This document shows, in pieces, positions 8,232 through 18,455 of a DNA stretch of 32,000 nucleotides. The DNA lies in contig CP104013.1 of the NCBI GenBank assembly GCA_025839675.1, positions 5,910,001 to 5,942,000 on the forward strand. The letters are read 5' to 3'. The translations under genes were made by a program, and so were the position numbers. Numbering within the stretch: the stretch's first letter is position 1; each line of letters opens with the position of its first letter. This stretch comes from Candidatus Lokiarchaeum ossiferum. Lineage in GTDB: Archaea; Asgardarchaeota; Lokiarchaeia; Sigyniarchaeales; Promethearchaeaceae. Below the pieces are notes generated by a model. That model was not told the DNA's origin. It was given only the letters and a program-made list of their open reading frames with translations, and did no database searches.

Positions 8232-8316
8232 GCGGGGATAATCAAGTCTGGTCCACGATGCTGGACTCAGAATCCAGTCCTATAGAGGCGCGAGGGTTCG
8301 AAGCCCTCTCCCCGCA
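8232..8316 (+). tRNA. trnL: tRNA-Leu (anticodon CAG), class II with long variable arm, no intron, no encoded CCA
   Basis: Folded by hand. The acceptor stem GCGGGGA (8232-8238) pairs perfectly with TCCCCGC (8309-8315). The anticodon stem is CTGGA/TCCAG with the 7-nt loop CTCAGAA (U33, anticodon CAG at 8268-8270, A37). The T arm is GAGGG-TTCGAAG-CCCTC. The variable region is 14 nt and the discriminator is A8316. Confidence 0.9.
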
Positions 8317-8445
8317 CTATTTAATTTTAATTTCAAATTATTCCCCTTCCCAAATCATTTTTAATGGAAAAGCCATATTTTAATATAAGATAAGAAGATC
8401 TTTTACTCAATTACGACCTTAAAATTTACAAAAAACTGATTTGTT

Positions 8446-12652: not shown

Positions 12653-13549
12653 TCAGTTCGATAAGGATTCGTTTAAAAATTCCAAAAATAGGTTCATCGA
12701 AATTTTCTCATACTCCTTTTGCTCTTTCCAAATTAAGAATTTTTTCCGTAATTCTGAAAGAATTTTTGGTGCTTCGATAGAAGAAAGTGGAATATCATAT
12801 TCTTTAAGAAGTAACCGATTTATGTCTTCCTTATTCGATTGACTTATTTTTTCCGTTATAATATCGTGGATGAGTGATCGAGATAATTTCTCTGTCTCAT
12901 TTTTGGATTCATCTACTTGGCTTTCCTTTGAATTTTGATTTAAAGACATTTGTTTCGATTCTTCCTCTTTTCGTTTGTTATTTTCAATTTCGATACGAAC
13001 TTGATTAAGTGTCTTTTCTATTGCTCCATCTAAAGAAATTCTACTGAAATCTATCTCCAATTTAGGGGCATCCCACTTGTATTTCTGCCCGGGAAAATCA
13101 AACTTCACTTTAATTTCATGAATCAGTTTGGATGGAATTGGACTTCCTCGCCCAAAATTCCACTTCAAGCATACTTTTTCAGGATTTGAGAAATAAATGG
13201 GAATATAGATTGCATTTTCGTTGATACTCATTTCAAAATAACGATGACGCATTGATATAAAGTAATGTAAATCGTCCACAATCACAACTGAATTTGATTT
13301 CAAGTTTTGGTGTACTCGTTTAAATTTTTCAGCTTGTACTTCATTTTCTTTTTCGGGTTGGAAAATTGGCCCAAACATTTCTGTTCGAATTTCATCAATA
13401 TCAATGATTGTTACGCTATCAAACATTGATTCAAAATTACAAACTTCTTGCAATAATTGAGCAAAAGTACTCTTACCCGAAGCAGGGAGTCCCATAAGTA
13501 ATATTAAAATCGGGCGGGTGGTGTATTTTGGCTTTGTTATTTCATTCAT
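12653..13549 (-). CDS. pstK: O-phosphoseryl-tRNA(Sec) kinase (PSTK) / Kti12-family P-loop kinase
   Basis: 298-aa ORF with a P-loop (GLPASGKST). Blocks VIVDDLHYFISMRHRYF and FDFPGQKYKWDAPKLEIDF resemble archaeal PSTK as I remember it from Methanocaldococcus (VIVDDTNYYNSMRRDL, FDEPGKKYKWDEP). A low-complexity linker is followed by a C-terminal helical domain ending ...ELRKKFLIWKE, as in the PSTK tRNA-binding domain. Confidence 0.65.
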   Translation of the reverse strand: MNEITKPKYTTRPILILLMGLPASGKSTFAQLLQEVCNFESMFDSVTIIDIDEIRTEMFGPIFQPEKENEVQAEKFKRVHQNLKSNSVVIVDDLHYFISMRHRYFEMSINENAIYIPIYFSNPEKVCLKWNFGRGSPIPSKLIHEIKVKFDFPGQKYKWDAPKLEIDFSRISLDGAIEKTLNQVRIEIENNKRKEEESKQMSLNQNSKESQVDESKNETEKLSRSLIHDIITEKISQSNKEDINRLLLKEYDIPLSSIEAPKILSELRKKFLIWKEQKEYEKISMNLFLEFLNESLSN

Positions 13550-13574: not shown

Positions 13575-13868
13575 TTATTCGATTTTTTCTTTTAAATTGT
13601 TTTGAAATTTTTCTATCAATTCCCATTTTTTAGCGGATGAAAATGATTTAATTTCATATTCTCGTTTCATTACTTCACTTCGAGATAGCTGCATTTCAAA
13701 ATATGCCAAATCTATTATCTTTCCTCGAGTATATTTGGCCCCCTTTCCAGTTCGGTGTTGTTCAATTCTAATCATGAGATCTTGAGTTGATCCAGTATAT
13801 AAAGAAACTTTATTTGTTTTCCGACTCGTGCACTTAAGAATATATACATAATAAACTCCGATTTTGAT
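13575..13868 (-). CDS. GIY-YIG nuclease-domain protein (UPF0213-like); no canonical start codon covers the GIY motif
   Basis: The ORF track starts at the ATG at 13775. The frame is open up to 13868, with an in-frame TGA at 13869-13871. The extension reads IKIGVYYVYILKCTSRKTNKVSLYTGSTQDL-MIRIEQHRTGKGAKYTRG..., which is the complete GIY (YVYIL) and YIG (LYTGST..L..R...H) motifs. There is no in-frame ATG, GTG or TTG upstream of the GIY motif. Confidence 0.65.
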   Translation of the reverse strand: MKIGVYYVYILKCTSRKTNKVSLYTGSTQDLMIRIEQHRTGKGAKYTRGKIIDLAYFEMQLSRSEVMKREYEIKSFSSAKKWELIEKFQNNLKEKIE

Positions 13869-13902: not shown

Positions 13903-14691
13903 TTATTTTAGATTAAAGAAAGATTTGCAATTATGGGTCGTAATCTCTGCAATATCATCTTTAGATATGTTCTTCAATGTTGATATTTTTTCTATTGAAA
14001 ATTTTAGGTATTGAGGTTCATTGACTTCAAATTCTGGTTTGGGTTGCAGAAAAGGGGCGTCAGTTTCTAACATTATTTTTTCAATTGGGAGTCTTTTGGC
14101 GATTTCTTGATTTATTTTTTTATAATAAACGGAAGTGGGAATTGTAAAATACCAATTATCATGTTCTAGACTTCGGGCAATATATTTTTCTGCTCCAATA
14201 AAACAGTGAAGTAAAACTCCTGGAAGATCTGAATATTTTTCTTCTTCTAAGATATTCACTGCATGTTTTTCCGCCCATCGACAGTGAATTACTACTGGCT
14301 TTTGCATTTCGATAGCAAAATCCAATTGATCCCTAAAAATTTGTTCTTGAAATTTTCGTAATGAAGAGTCACGGACCTGTAAATAGTCTAAACCAATTTC
14401 TCCTAATGCTAAAAACTCCTCTGAATGCTTTCGAAAGTGATCTTTGAAAAGCTTTACATCTACATCGGGTTGAACGGCTTCTTCTGGGTGAATTCCAATA
14501 ATATTCTTTATTATGGGAAATTGTTTTCCCAACCTCAAACATGGTTCAAAATCATCATATTTAATTCCCGTGTTGATAATTGTTGTGATTCCTTGCTTTT
14601 GTGCGCGTTTGATCACTTGATCGACTTGTTTCAATAACGTCGGCCAGATCAGATGTGCATGAGCATCAATTATTTCTTTTAATACGGGCAT
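13903..14691 (-). CDS. tatD: TatD-family metal-dependent hydrolase/DNase
   Basis: 262-aa ORF with TatD motifs: IDAHAHL at the N-terminus, ALGEIGLDY, VVIHCR, and LETDAPFL near the C-terminus. Confidence 0.9.
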   Translation of the reverse strand: MPVLKEIIDAHAHLIWPTLLKQVDQVIKRAQKQGITTIINTGIKYDDFEPCLRLGKQFPIIKNIIGIHPEEAVQPDVDVKLFKDHFRKHSEEFLALGEIGLDYLQVRDSSLRKFQEQIFRDQLDFAIEMQKPVVIHCRWAEKHAVNILEEEKYSDLPGVLLHCFIGAEKYIARSLEHDNWYFTIPTSVYYKKINQEIAKRLPIEKIMLETDAPFLQPKPEFEVNEPQYLKFSIEKISTLKNISKDDIAEITTHNCKSFFNLK

Positions 14692-14789: not shown

Positions 14790-15449
14790 ATGAAACAAAG
14801 AGAGATAAATATGCCAGAAGGAATTGTGATAATCGATTGGGATGAATTTGAGGGAGGAGTTGTGTCATTTAAATATCCAGACATTGAAGTTCCATCCAAT
14901 TTAGTTCAGCTTTTGCAAATCTCTCACTCGTTCAACCCGGGATTAATAACTATTCAAGAAACTGATTTTCATGCTTTATCCATTGGGAATGAAGATTTAC
15001 AGAAAGTTATTGTGCTAATTTTGAATAAATTTGAAGATGCAAGTGATTTCACTGAAATTATTTATACTATTAATAAATCCGTATCGGATCACTCTGAATC
15101 TCAAAAATTAGAAAATGAATTGACTCGTATTTTTGGCTTATCCCAATCTGTATTTAAAGCTCGAGAAGCGGTTTTAACTAAACTTGCGAATGAGGTCACT
15201 GAGCTAAAAAATCGAGAGATTGATTTGAAATTATCTTTAGAATGGCTGCTACTCAATGAAACATCCCCTGAAAACCAGATTATTTTAGTGTTGTTGCGTT
15301 ACGGTTCAATGCAATGTTCCAATCTTACCAAATATATCGAACTCCCTGAAACTGAAATACAATCTTTATTAAATGAGATGGAAACAAAAAAAATCTTAGA
15401 AAATCGTGATGGGTTCTATTTCTTACTCATTCATTACCAAATTAGCTAA
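14790..15449 (+). CDS. Uncharacterised protein: N-terminal alpha/beta (longin/roadblock-like?) domain, central coiled coil, C-terminal winged-helix-like domain
   Basis: 219-aa ORF; the ATG at 14811 is an alternative start. The N-terminal 100 aa alternate strand-like and helix-like segments (GIVIIDWDE / GGVVSFKYP / SNLVQLLQISHSF / GLITIQETDFHALSI / KVIVLILNK / DFTEIIYTINKSV). The C-terminus (IILVLLRYGSMQCSNLTKYIELPETEIQSLLNEMETKKILENRDGFYFL) looks like a TrmB/MarR-type wHTH. The coding call is good; the function is inferred. Confidence 0.45.
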   Translation: MKQREINMPEGIVIIDWDEFEGGVVSFKYPDIEVPSNLVQLLQISHSFNPGLITIQETDFHALSIGNEDLQKVIVLILNKFEDASDFTEIIYTINKSVSDHSESQKLENELTRIFGLSQSVFKAREAVLTKLANEVTELKNREIDLKLSLEWLLLNETSPENQIILVLLRYGSMQCSNLTKYIELPETEIQSLLNEMETKKILENRDGFYFLLIHYQIS

Positions 15450-15511: not shown

Positions 15512-15757
15512 TTATTTAGCTAAAGTAATGAGAGTGCTACTCTTTTTAATATCAAATTTCTTCCGCAAATCCATCATAAAACTGGTCATTTCTTGAAGAT
15601 TGTTTAACTCTACCTTGATTATCAGGTCATAATCCCCATAAATCAAATGAACCTCTTTCACTTTATCAATACTTTGTACTTCATTAAAAATATTTTCTGT
15701 TGAATTCGAATCCGTAACCAACAACACGAACGCCACTACTTTATCTGCTGAGCTCAT
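15512..15757 (-). CDS. Stand-alone Lrp/AsnC ligand-binding (RAM) domain protein
   Basis: 81-aa ORF matching the AsnC_trans_reg/RAM pattern: VVAFVLLVT...IFNEVQSIDKVKEVHLIYGDYDLIIKVELNNLQEMTSFMMD-LRK...IKKSSTLITL. There is no HTH domain. Confidence 0.75.
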   Translation of the reverse strand: MSSADKVVAFVLLVTDSNSTENIFNEVQSIDKVKEVHLIYGDYDLIIKVELNNLQEMTSFMMDLRKKFDIKKSSTLITLAK

Positions 15758-15962
15758 ATTTTACACCTATTATCAGAATTATAATACACGTATTTTAATG
15801 TATATGTTTTTGTTCCTAAAAATACTTGCTTTCATTAAAAATTCCATGAAATAGTCTATAAATCTTTGTAGAATTAATTTGGTTGAAAAAAATGCCTTCA
15901 GTCGCTCCATTACGTTAAAAAATATTCATAATCCTTGATCTCTAATTTTCCCATAAATGGAG

Positions 15963-16442
15963 TTATTCCGAAGGAACTACAATCATAAATTTACACATTT
16001 TCGCTTCTTTACCAGATAAACGACATTCTAATTCTTGCGCAAAACAATGTTTCCCAGTGATACGTTCCACAATCCCTGCAAATAATCCCGCTTCAAAAGA
16101 ACAAAATCCTTGCTGGATTTCAATATTTGGGATGTCGATATCTTTACACGACCTGCAAGATTCCAATCCAAACGTAATGTGGTCTGAATTTTCTTCCAAA
16201 AGATGGAATGTTCCGAGGTGATAAGAATCTGATACTTGTTTTAATATATTTACAAGTTTTTTATCTTCCATTGGTTCATCATCGATGGTACTCCCAAGTT
16301 CATGTCCAATGAAATAAAAAATTGCTTCTAATTGGTTTCCCAAGGCATATAATGCCCCGATCTTTAAATCCCCTATATTAGATCCATTTTTTAAAAGCAA
16401 TTTCATTTTTTTTAGCATTCCTTCAAGCAAAATTCTATTCAT
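15963..16442 (-). CDS. V4R (vinyl-4-reductase) domain protein
   Basis: 159-aa ORF. The C-terminal part, CSFEAGLFAGIVERITGKHCFAQELECRLSGKEAKMCKFMIV, follows the V4R signature C...G...G......E..C...G...C.F.I. It lies 45 bp downstream of the thioredoxin-like gene on the same strand. Confidence 0.7.
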   Translation of the reverse strand: MNRILLEGMLKKMKLLLKNGSNIGDLKIGALYALGNQLEAIFYFIGHELGSTIDDEPMEDKKLVNILKQVSDSYHLGTFHLLEENSDHITFGLESCRSCKDIDIPNIEIQQGFCSFEAGLFAGIVERITGKHCFAQELECRLSGKEAKMCKFMIVVPSE

Positions 16443-16487
16443 ACAAACCCTTCCTTTTATTCTCCTTTTCCTTTTTATGCCTTTCCC

Positions 16488-16790
16488 TTATTCTTCCATA
16501 AGCATATCTTCATCATCAAAAGAAACTGAAGATAAAAATCCTTGTAATATTGCATCCGTCATCTCATTTTTATCAATTATCACCGAAAGGCGAGTTTTTC
16601 CAATGATGAGTGTCGGAACTGATATTACATTGAATTTTCGTGCGATTTCAATATCCGATGCTATGTTTATTTTTTTTATTCGTAATTTGTTACCAAAAAG
16701 ACTCATATTTATTTCATTCAGCATTTTCGTTACGCTTTTGCAAGGAGCACAATAGGGGCTCGTAAAATAATAAATTAATGGATATCCCAT
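16488..16790 (-). CDS. Thioredoxin-fold protein with CAPC active site
   Basis: 100-aa ORF with YFTSPYCAPCKSV (a CxxC motif after beta1) and a cis-Pro motif (SVPT). It has an acidic C-terminal tail (SFDDEDMLMEE). It lies 54 bp downstream of the GTPase gene. Confidence 0.8.
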   Translation of the reverse strand: MGYPLIYYFTSPYCAPCKSVTKMLNEINMSLFGNKLRIKKINIASDIEIARKFNVISVPTLIIGKTRLSVIIDKNEMTDAILQGFLSSVSFDDEDMLMEE

Positions 16791-16844
16791 ATTTGCAACC
16801 TACTTCTCCTTGATTTCTCTTCTTCCTCAATTGAAAATGGTTTT

Positions 16845-17405
16845 TTAGCTTTCTTTCAATGCATTTTTTACCAAAATATCAATGATTGAATTGAATGCAT
16901 CTTCGACATGTTTTCCTGTTTTGGCTGATGTAAGATAAAAGCCTAAAAAGCCTCGTTCCTTGGCAATTTTTTGGATCGCTGCTTGATCATAGGTTTCCTC
17001 GTCAATTAAATCGCTTTTATTCGCAAAACACACTGTTGGGAGATTTCCGCAGTAATTACTGATATCATCTATCCATTCGTTAACGTTGTGCATCGTTTCA
17101 TCTCGTGTCAGATCATAAACAACAATTGTGGCTTTGGCTCCGTTATAAAATGTTGGACGCATAAATTTGAACTCACTTTGTCCAGCAATATCCCAGAAAA
17201 ACAATCGTGCTCTAATATTTTTGTTCTCACCGACTATTCTTTCATACCTAGAAAATTGCGCACCAAGTGTCTTGATATAGTCTTTATTAAAACTGCCTTG
17301 TGTGAAGCGTTTGATGAGCGATGTTTTTCCGGCGGCCCCATCCCCAATAACACAAATTTTGAAAATAAAATCGTTCGTAAATTCCTCGTCTGCCATATTT
17401 TTCAC
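16845..17405 (-). CDS. Ras-superfamily small GTPase (Rab/Ras-like), no C-terminal Cys lipidation motif
   Basis: 186-aa ORF with all G-boxes: G1 GDGAAGKTS, switch I T in IKTLGAQF, G3 WDIAGQSEF, G4 NKSD, G5 TSAK. It ends ...VKNALKES without any Cys. Confidence 0.9.
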   Translation of the reverse strand: MKNMADEEFTNDFIFKICVIGDGAAGKTSLIKRFTQGSFNKDYIKTLGAQFSRYERIVGENKNIRARLFFWDIAGQSEFKFMRPTFYNGAKATIVVYDLTRDETMHNVNEWIDDISNYCGNLPTVCFANKSDLIDEETYDQAAIQKIAKERGFLGFYLTSAKTGKHVEDAFNSIIDILVKNALKES

Positions 17406-17930
17406 ATTTCACAAAAATTTTTTTGTGGTTGAATTAATATATTTAATTTAGTGAGTTTCTCTTAAAAGAATTGTGAGTACAAACACAACAAGACTAATCG
17501 CTTTTAAATAAGAGAAAAAAGATCCTTAAAAAAATTCATGATTATTGGAAAAAAAACTTACATATTGTTGCCTCCTATCGACTCTTTTTGGATCTTTTAG
17601 ATTTCGTTTTTATTTTCCTGCACTTGAAGTTTTTTTTTTCTAAGACTTCTTATTTTGAAAAGTTGCAACATTAGAATGGCCGATTGAATTGGGGTTAGAT
17701 ATAATAAGGGGGAATTCAATGGAGTATTAAAAGTCCACGGGAAAGTTTTATAATTATGCAAAGTGTATTCCATTTTTTTTTATGACATTTGAATCCTTGT
17801 GGAGTTCACTATTTTGAATTTTTTTTTAAAAACCATTTTATCACAATATTAAATTTACATAAACTCCAATACCTCTAAATAATTGGTTAGATAATTTAAA
17901 ATTAAGAATTGCTCTGAAAAAGAGAAAAAA

Positions 17931-18455
17931 TTAGATAGTTTTGACAATCGTCATAATCAGGTCTTTAAATGCTTCTTCGACCTTTTCCCCAGTAGCGGCC
18001 GACGTTAATATCAATGGAATATTATATTTTTTGGCATACTCATCCGCCTGTTCTTGAGTAATTACCTTATTTTCTTCCAAATCAATTTTATTGCCAATTA
18101 AAATCATAGGAACTTTATCACCACGGATTTCAATTAAGGATCCAATCCAATCATCGAGATGATCAAAGGATGCTTGAGATGTGATGTCGAACACGACCAA
18201 TGCTCCTTGAGACCCTTCCAAATATAATTTTCGCAACTTTCTGTATGCTTGTTGTCCACCAAGATCCCAAATTTGAACGCTAGCGGTCTTTCCCGCAAAA
18301 TCGCCATCAAGTGTTAATTTTTTTTTGAGAAGGTTTACTCCCAAAGTTGATTTAAAATCACGTGAAAACCGGTTTTCGATGTATCTATAAACTAAACTTG
18401 TCTTTCCAACTGCCCCGTCTCCGAGAAGACAAATCTTAAGAACGTAATCTGCCAT
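17931..18455 (-). CDS. Ras-superfamily small GTPase (Rab-like), no C-terminal Cys lipidation motif
   Basis: 174-aa ORF with G1 GDGAVGKTS, switch I STLGVNL, G3 WDLGGQQAY, G4 GNKIDL, G5 TSAATG. It ends ...MTIVKTI. Confidence 0.9.
   Translation of the reverse strand: MADYVLKICLLGDGAVGKTSLVYRYIENRFSRDFKSTLGVNLLKKKLTLDGDFAGKTASVQIWDLGGQQAYRKLRKLYLEGSQGALVVFDITSQASFDHLDDWIGSLIEIRGDKVPMILIGNKIDLEENKVITQEQADEYAKKYNIPLILTSAATGEKVEEAFKDLIMTIVKTI

Follow-up and report, generated by a model that had tools for sequence, protein, structure and literature searches.

Three groups of described proteins come close to the V4R protein reported here. MsvR carries an N-terminal helix-turn-helix (HTH) and a C-terminal V4R domain, and its output is DNA binding. 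The protein binds DNA only when reduced, the C206A replacement in MaMsvR abolishes this redox control, and oxidised MsvR is re-reduced by the thioredoxin system of M. acetivorans. PoxR, MopR, DmpR and XylR are bacterial sigma-54 activators. Their aromatic-sensing V4R domains, which dimerise and bury a ligand pocket, are fused to AAA+ and DNA-binding domains. Bet3/TRAPPC3 and Thor-TRAPPC3 have the fold of the same superfamily; Thor-TRAPPC3 binds zinc through cysteines, and mouse Bet3 has lost the zinc site. Thor-Rab and Thor-TRAPPC3 have been solved, and two V4R/TRAPPC3 proteins of P. syntrophicum MK-D1 (WP_147663132.1, WP_147661794.1) have been analysed (Tran et al., 2024). As to gene organization, a small GTPase gene adjoins a candidate regulator gene in MglA-MglB and in the operon encoding a LAMTOR1-like protein, a Rab-like GTPase and a DENN protein (Liu et al.). 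Here, we describe a probable operon of Candidatus Lokiarchaeum ossiferum in which a gene for a Rab-like GTPase (GTPase-1) is followed by genes for a short thioredoxin (Trx) and a stand-alone V4R protein. It is located in a stretch of 32,000 nt of CP104013.1 (positions 5,910,001-5,942,000), hereafter the window. The genes of a second Rab-like GTPase (GTPase-2) and of a stand-alone RAM domain lie on either side (Table 1). The operon is apparently a variant on prokaryotic operons that combine a small GTPase with a partner, Trx and V4R being new in this role; in the two described arrangements the partners are instead roadblock, longin or DENN proteins.

A profile of the V4R family found 144 relatives in GTDB species-representative genomes. 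Open reading frames (ORFs) were called in the best 80 loci, MK-D1 included, and matched to the window proteins. In 76 of these 80 loci, the genes for GTPase-1, Trx and V4R run colinearly on the same strand, and in all 78 informative ones they are adjacent; of the four non-colinear loci, two are truncated by contig ends, the GTPase gene is inverted in a third, and V4R and Trx have changed places in the fourth. The gene calls of the source databases, made independently, give the same Ras-Thioredoxin-V4R-Ras order. The arrangement is far beyond chance. Thus, the run of three genes noticed in the initial annotation is a real and tightly conserved unit, and the GTPase-1/Trx/V4R operon very probably functions as one.

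How many independent observations stand behind these counts has to be considered. A V4R identity threshold of 50% divides the 80 loci into about 3 groups, one of 60% into 7 and one of 70% into 15, and 56 of the loci form one group at 75% identity or more. Synteny in this largest group extends to the flanks (CinA, M29 peptidase, deoxyhypusine synthase, TBP, acylphosphatase, GIY-YIG, KTI12), so that independent comparisons are far fewer than 80; the effectively independent sequences number about 15-27. Within that group, the general synteny around the operon weakens the argument from gene order. It would suit a reading in which the genes are merely co-expressed in the same response (e.g. oxidative or thiol stress), their products never being in contact and the GTPases having other, unlinked regulators. 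Some groups of loci are, however, as low as 43-50% in V4R identity and have different flanking genes, and the triad is intact between groups whose flanks were rearranged. This persistence of strict adjacency and order argues against co-expression alone, which we regard as unlikely.

Signals read from the sequence are consistent with a single transcription unit. Over the 76 colinear loci, the median gaps are 9.5 nt between GTPase-1 and Trx and 54 nt between Trx and V4R. T-runs of at least 5 occur in 4 of the 76 GTPase-1/Trx gaps, in 6 of the 76 Trx/V4R gaps and, within 100 nt after V4R, in 54 of the 76 loci; in the window, V4R is followed, 41-77 nt from its stop codon, by the T6 and T7 runs. 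A GGAGG or (A/G)GTGA element is conserved across loci 7-12 nt before the V4R ATG, in an A-rich spacer. The leader of GTPase-1 contains a Shine-Dalgarno-like GTGAAA, and some 45 nt before the GTPase-1 ATG, near 17431-17450, lies a TATA-like TTAAATATATTAA, the presumed promoter of the operon. A TATA signal before V4R, found with a loose pattern in 55 of the 76 Trx-V4R gaps, was discarded, as most matches fall on the end of the Trx coding sequence, which is conserved (GTTAAAATATAA). Co-transcription of GTPase-1, Trx and V4R thereby appears well supported.

GTPase-2 behaves differently. Its orthologue is found near the triad in 65 of the 76 loci, which bears out the earlier view that the second GTPase belongs to the neighbourhood, and a downstream position is found in 43 loci on the same strand and in 16 on the opposite strand, an upstream one in 6. 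The upstream position seen in the window is that of the Promethearchaeum/Lokiarchaeum clade; elsewhere, the gene mostly follows V4R directly. Where GTPase-2 is downstream of V4R, a T-run is present in 34 of 39 intervening gaps, and another follows GTPase-2 in 37 of 39 loci. GTPase-2 is therefore usually a separate transcription unit. This also holds for the window, where T6 at 17925-17930 directly follows the gene as its own putative terminator.

The coordinates of the five minus-strand ORFs, as well as the gaps of 54, 45, 205 and 525 nt between them, proved exact, and Pfam bore out each of the domains. The ORF of GTPase-1 was listed as 16845-17405, with a GTG start. The true start is likely the ATG at 17396, because the resulting 'MADEEF...' parallels the 'MADYV...' of GTPase-2. 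The spacer between the two GTPase genes measures 525 nt here (534 nt from the ATG) and 193 nt in MK-D1 (L006, 3791 to 3985). A 58-aa ORF inside it (17597-17773) is unsupported.

Table 1. Features of the operon and of the adjoining genes (window positions).
Feature	Position	Strand	Description
GTPase-2	17931..18455	minus	Rab-like small GTPase, 174 aa; Pfam Ras E = 2.2e-49
GTPase-2/GTPase-1 intergenic region	17397..17930	minus	presumed operon promoter, read from sequence
GTPase-1	16845..17396	minus	first operon gene; Rab-like small GTPase, 183 aa; Pfam Ras E = 2.7e-39
GTPase-1/Trx spacer	16791..16844	minus	54 nt; AGGAG motif, without T-run
Trx	16488..16790	minus	short thioredoxin, 100 aa; Pfam Thioredoxin E = 2.2e-9
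Trx/V4R spacer	16443..16487	minus	45 nt, A-rich; GGAAGGG Shine-Dalgarno-like, 6-13 nt before ATG
V4R	15963..16442	minus	stand-alone V4R-fold protein, 159 aa; Pfam V4R + DUF2507
T-runs after V4R	15886..15922	minus	T6 15917-15922, T7 15886-15892; likely archaeal terminator (putative function)
RAM	15512..15757	minus	stand-alone RAM (Lrp/AsnC ligand-binding), 81 aa; PF01037 E = 1.5e-11

The Pfam V4R family (PF02830) matches residues 110-154 of the V4R protein with 32.5 bits (cut-off 31 bits), and most homologues carry PF02830 and/or PF10702. The NCBIfam model of MsvR also aligns, over residues 32-154 (model positions 120-236), with 39.5 bits, far from its 220-bit cut-off. The protein lacks the HTH that, with the C-terminal V4R domain, defines the MsvR equivalog. 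An AlphaFold 2 (AF2) model (pLDDT 88.8, pTM 0.85) has the two-layer alpha/beta V4R fold. In Foldseek searches, this model matches MopR/PoxR with E = 6e-6, a template-modelling (TM) score of 0.60-0.63 and a probability of 1.00, a probability also obtained for MJ1460. Bet3/TRAPPC3 follows with E = 2.4e-5 and TM 0.61-0.64, and Thor-TRAPPC3 (PDB 7yh3) with E = 1.4e-4 and TM 0.51-0.54. The protein thus belongs to the V4R/Bet3 superfamily, without special affinity to Bet3. The likeness to Bet3 pointed out previously thus stands in terms of fold, although it is no closer than that to MopR/PoxR or MJ1460.

Four cysteines of the V4R protein, C114, C133, C140 and C150, are conserved at 97-100% among 80 sequences, and E137, H47 and E48 are invariant. 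C114, E137, C140 and C150 (99-100%) display the Cys-x22-Glu-x2-Cys-x8-10-Cys zinc-ligand pattern shared with PoxR, MopR, DmpR and XylR. Their spacings are 23, 3 and 9-10, as compared with 23, 3 and 8 between the proven zinc ligands of XylR/PoxR/MopR/DmpR (C149, E172, C175, C183). They also occupy the same secondary-structure positions as the PoxR-type ligands, at a helix start and in a hairpin: in the AF2 model, C114 directly precedes helix 115-129, and C140 and C150 flank the hairpin 134-139/150-155. A zinc site made of Cys114, Glu137, Cys140 and Cys150 is predicted on this basis. Moreover, C206, C232 and C240 of MaMsvR correspond to C114, C140 and C150. Unlike MsvR, the operon protein consists of a V4R domain only, without a promoter-binding domain, and has a thioredoxin encoded in the same operon and a Rab-like GTPase as co-encoded partner. 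It differs from the PoxR-type regulators in being stand-alone and archaeal, in its linkage to Trx and GTPases and in an additional, family-specific His132-Cys133 pair. Since the conserved residues are those of the zinc site and redox triad of sensor domains, they indicate sensing; catalysis of nucleotide exchange is not evidenced by them.

Two variations on this cysteine pattern were observed. An extra Cys96-x2-Cys99 (window 16146-16157, minus strand), in the predicted beta2-alphaD loop, is present in about 17% of the V4R orthologues, all of Lokiarchaeales type. It recalls the CX2CX3H motif in MsvR of M. thermautotrophicus and could possibly be an extra redox or metal site in the Lokiarchaeales clade. 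Conversely, a divergent full-length member of the V4R family (P0316, 156 aa) appears to have no equivalents of Cys140 and Cys150, and the zinc/redox site may have been lost in at least this lineage.

The initial annotation had gone further and suggested that the linkage of V4R and GTPase would fit an ancestral GTPase-regulator pair. V4R would then be a Bet3-type guanine-nucleotide exchange factor (GEF) for the adjacent Rab-like GTPases, ancestral to TRAPP-Rab1, a role compatible with sensing. The model indeed superposes on Bet3/TRAPPC3, the chains of TRAPPII-Ypt32 and TRAPPIII-Ypt1 included, within the TM range given above. In addition, the operon links V4R to Rab-like GTPases whose best solved relatives include Rab1, a genomic link that echoes the function of TRAPP, and a longin/roadblock-like protein, i.e. 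the other TRAPP core fold, is encoded in the wider neighbourhood. However, the fold is at least as close to MopR/PoxR, with slightly better E-values, and to MJ1460. Profile searches point the same way. No Bet3-family profile matched the V4R protein in a Pfam scan at E <= 0.01, which gave V4R and DUF2507 only, and the profile of the family reaches, at E <= 1e-3 in the PDB, MJ1460 only, neither Bet3 nor Thor-TRAPPC3. Closer TRAPPC3-like proteins exist in Asgard archaea and belong to a different family. The residues conserved in V4R are, as seen above, the zinc/redox site of sensor domains. Furthermore, the operon contains no longin gene, and its longin-like neighbour is not specifically linked to it (see below). 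The surface of TRAPP that binds the Rab and carries exchange is reportedly formed mainly by longin subunits plus the C-terminus of one Bet3, so that exchange by TRAPP requires the longin subunits.

Distribution argues in the same sense. An exhaustive hidden Markov model (HMM) search of 1.84 billion representative proteins delivered only four full-length 50%-identity clusters of the V4R family, beyond which the scores fall sharply to generic V4R proteins. The module is apparently limited to Lokiarchaeia in the broad sense, Helarchaeales-type genomes included. An Asgard-wide distribution, deduced from the titles of metagenome-assembled genomes (Thor, Odin, Hod, Hermod), was considered and withdrawn, the labels being contradicted. 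The records titled Thor-, Odin-, Hod- and Hermodarchaeota (L015-L082) were all submitted by one and the same project; 'Lokiarchaeota' and 'Hodarchaeota' both occur as labels within one V4R cluster at 90% identity; and among the members of a GTPase-1 cluster is a Loki's Castle metagenome protein (clusters of P0086 and P0209). Because taxon labels conflict at identities of 90% or more, they are unfit for inferring where the module occurs. As the family is narrow and demonstrable only in Lokiarchaeia, a pair ancestral to eukaryotic TRAPP is not favoured, and we consider a Bet3-type exchange factor of this kind very unlikely.

The thioredoxin has the active site Cys14-Ala-Pro-Cys17 (YCAPC instead of WCGPC) and cis-Pro59. 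Both CxPC cysteines are 100% conserved, as is cis-Pro59, in 77 of 77 sequences. It scores 37.7 bits with the Pfam thioredoxin family (cut-off 23.5 bits) and 42.3 bits with the NCBIfam thioredoxin model, below its 96.8-bit equivalog cut-off; a match to the MJ0307-type model is likewise below cut-off. Alignment to residues 23-80 of B. subtilis Trx places its start at about residue 18-23 of a canonical thioredoxin. Since this alignment begins at residue 23, the protein lacks the N-terminal beta1-alpha1. It therefore departs from the canonical TrxA equivalog, with its five-strand fold, beta1-alpha1 and WCGPC.

Both GTPases have all the G motifs, namely the G1 P-loop GxxxxGK[ST], the switch I Thr, G3 DxxGQ, G4 NKxD and G5 SA[KA]. 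These motifs, the catalytic Gln included, are conserved across 75 orthologues of GTPase-1 and 65 of GTPase-2, and switches I and II are highly conserved in both. The best PDB relatives are Thor-Rab (1.3e-30), then Rab23, Rab1B and Rab35, for GTPase-1, and Thor-Rab (7ezb, 5e-37), then Rab21, Ypt7 and Rab11, for GTPase-2. The nearest characterised relatives among PDB matches are thus Rabs, not Ras, Arf, Rag or MglA; Thor-Rab itself is a paralogue different from the two. A by-eye comparison with the RabF1-F5 motifs found LGAQF, FWDIAGQS and VVYDLT in GTPase-1 and LGVNL, IWDLGGQQ and VVFDIT in GTPase-2, a likeness that is only partial. As GTPase-1 and GTPase-2 are 32% identical to each other, while each has its own orthologues at 50-60%, they represent two old, distinct families. 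Neither has the prenylatable C-terminal Cys motif (CC, CXC, CAAX) of strict eukaryotic Rabs; the absence of a C-terminal Cys, already noticed by the initial annotation, is visible in the ends '...NALKES' (GTPase-1) and '...IVKTI' (GTPase-2). No conserved Cys was found anywhere among the 75 and 65 orthologues. Direct redox control of the GTPases, of the Ras C118 or Rho P-loop type, was rejected on this ground, and V4R is left as the only conserved thiol-bearing candidate partner of Trx in the unit.

Co-variation of evolutionary rates was studied with a mirror-tree analysis based on distance matrices of 38 loci, the syntenic TBP, CinA and M29 peptidase serving as controls. V4R, GTPase-1, Trx and GTPase-2 intercorrelate with r = 0.78-0.86, as compared with 0.48-0.74 between module proteins and controls and 0.49-0.70 among controls. 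Once the control-derived background is removed, the module pairs keep a partial r of 0.51-0.73. Among all pairs, Trx-V4R shares the top value (r = 0.86, partial 0.73). All four module proteins evolve slowly by comparison with their CinA and M29 peptidase neighbours. Rate co-variation above that of syntenic controls, together with this slower evolution, argues against co-expression alone. It is suggestive of coupling, with the qualification that the 38 loci come from one large clade and provide no valid p-value. On the side of co-expression alone stands the lack of fusion proteins: a profile search among the 1.84 billion representatives returned no GTPase-V4R or Trx-V4R fusion. Also, the GTPases of MK-D1 generally lie outside operons of presumed regulators (Tran et al., 2024). 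One metagenome protein of 201 aa (P0325) begins with the N-terminus of a bacterial-type DJ-1/ElbB protein and continues, in frame, with about 62 N-terminal residues of the V4R family; located at a truncated contig end, it is a probable assembly chimera and was not taken for a real fusion.

From these data, a mechanism can tentatively be proposed for the operon. The stand-alone V4R protein would be the sensor, probably as a homodimer by analogy with PoxR and Thor-TRAPPC3. It would carry a sensor-type Cys-Glu-Cys-Cys zinc site with three cysteines at the redox positions of MsvR and, probably, the hydrophobic cavity typical of the fold. Its conformation would be switched by thiol oxidation and zinc release (possibly with participation of C133) and/or by ligand binding. 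The co-encoded CxPC thioredoxin would re-reduce V4R and so reset the sensor, and the state of V4R would be relayed to, or read out through, the Rab-like GTPases by direct binding. In this last step, V4R may act as exchange factor, GTPase-activating protein (GAP), holder resembling a guanine-nucleotide dissociation inhibitor (GDI-like) or effector. As a whole, a thiol/zinc- or ligand-gated V4R that is reset by Trx and coupled to Rab-like GTPases is possible, and we offer it tentatively. A narrower version, in which the V4R dimer, under thiol/zinc gating, regulates both GTPases directly (as a GEF, a GAP or in a GDI-like manner), seems to us doubtful. Among the steps of this scheme, we infer co-transcription, zinc binding, the action of Trx on V4R and the contact between V4R and the GTPases.

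Several points weigh against this mechanism, besides the flanking synteny of the largest group, the origin of the rate data in one clade and the lack of fusions mentioned above. An internal promoter may exist before V4R. The V4R cysteines may never be redox-active, and Trx may serve another substrate; in PoxR, MopR and DmpR, the zinc site has been described as structural. These proteins also suggest an alternative, in which the V4R cavity binds a hydrophobic ligand (as with phenols in PoxR or palmitate in Bet3), zinc is structural, Trx is a general or unrelated reductase, co-expressed by chance, and the output still passes via the GTPases. In PoxR/MopR/DmpR, the zinc site is important for structural integrity and the ligand occupies a separate pocket. 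Asgard TRAPP/V4R proteins have been judged likely ligand binders (Tran et al., 2024). In the operon protein, such a pocket could be lined by the invariant H47, E48, Q37, Y43 and H132-C133, none of which is part of the zinc site. It should, however, be noted that Trx lies between both genes in 76 of 78 loci, with its CxPC invariant and family-specific surface residues conserved, a constancy that one would not expect of a non-specific thioredoxin. The high Trx-V4R rate correlation, and the precedent of MsvR, where the same cysteines are a redox switch reset by thioredoxin, argue in the same direction. A purely ligand-driven sensor is thus rather unlikely in our view. The redox or small-molecule input proposed initially remains plausible. 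A GTPase regulatory module, likewise, is plausible and has gained a good footing in comparative genomics. What the evidence points to is a redox/ligand sensor resembling MsvR and PoxR rather than a Bet3-type GEF.

The RAM gene had been counted as part of the same module. Its product consists almost entirely of the RAM domain (PF01037, residues 15-79 of 81), without HTH, and corresponds to the stand-alone RAM/demi-FFRP proteins of 75-85 aa. Accordingly, its best PDB relatives are demi-FFRP proteins of 75-83 aa (2cvi, 2e1a, 2zbc). A RAM homologue is present in 11 of 80 loci and directly follows V4R in 7 of the 76 colinear ones, at a distance of 16 nt in MK-D1 versus 205 nt in the window. All RAM-bearing loci belong to Lokiarchaeales-type genomes and their nearest relatives. 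RAM being confined to the closest relatives, it is a lineage-specific accessory, not a core part of the module.

On the opposite strand, 63 nt beyond RAM, lies the gene of an uncharacterised conserved protein of 212 aa without Pfam family (P219, window 14811-15449; DSAG12_02518 in MK-D1), which is convergent to the operon in 53 of the 76 loci. Its AF2 model comprises an N-terminal beta-beta-alpha-beta-beta-beta-alpha domain, then a ~50-residue helix and a winged helix, a layout like that of CRP/FNR-like sensor transcription factors. The N-terminal domain matches GATOR1 Nprl, DENND1A-Rab35, zeta-COP, AP sigma, Ragulator and synbindin (longin/roadblock-type). P219 was considered as a third, TRAPP-like longin component and demoted, since it travels with GIY-YIG and KTI12 and its linkage is not operon-specific. 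What looked like a paralogue of P219 on the plus strand is KTI12, drawn into the cluster by spurious single linkage. Beyond P219, on the minus strand, are encoded a KTI12/PSTK-like P-loop kinase (12653-13549), a small GIY-YIG protein (13575-13775) and a TatD hydrolase (13903-14691). The order P219/GIY-YIG/KTI12 is kept in most related loci, TatD in close relatives only. NEF87_005022 of Ca. Lokiarchaeum ossiferum and a neighbouring protein of 219 aa share 100% identity. A scan of the whole window at Rfam gathering thresholds, tRNA model included, gave zero matches; ARAGORN found a tRNA-Leu(CAG) of 86 nt at 8232-8317 (plus strand).

The initial annotation had left open whether the arrangement had been described before. 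In the open-access literature searched, supplementary tables being outside its scope, neither the locus tags nor a V4R-GTPase linkage were found. Liu et al. never mention thioredoxin or V4R, and neither GTPases nor operons are mentioned by Podar et al. (2008). The MK-D1 orthologue of V4R, DSAG12_02516 (WP_147663616.1, annotated 'hypothetical'), is a third V4R-fold protein of that strain, distinct from those analysed by Tran et al. (2024). Compared with Bet3 and Thor-TRAPPC3, the operon V4R lacks sequence or profile membership and a longin partner in the operon. Given the scope of the literature considered, the arrangement is provisionally, and apparently, undescribed.

Both Asgard archaea in culture, L. 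ossiferum and P. syntrophicum MK-D1, carry the operon (in MK-D1 as DSAG12_02514-02516, of which the first is annotated as a Rab family GTPase and the second as thioredoxin family). To our knowledge, Asgard genomes encode dozens of Ras-superfamily GTPases whose regulators are not known, and the operon is one of very few genome-encoded candidate pairings of a GTPase with a regulator in these archaea. It leads to a concrete hypothesis, that of a Trx-resettable Zn/Cys V4R sensor acting with Rab-like switches, and offers a direct route to testing a functional GTPase link in the V4R-to-Bet3 story. If a V4R dimer did regulate the GTPases directly, it would be the first Bet3-fold protein controlling a Rab-like switch in a prokaryote. 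In that case, the link between the V4R/Bet3 fold and Rab-type GTPases would predate TRAPP, its input being redox or ligand state. Even without a TRAPP connection, a redox- or ligand-gated small-GTPase module would, if true, represent a new type of prokaryotic signalling unit.

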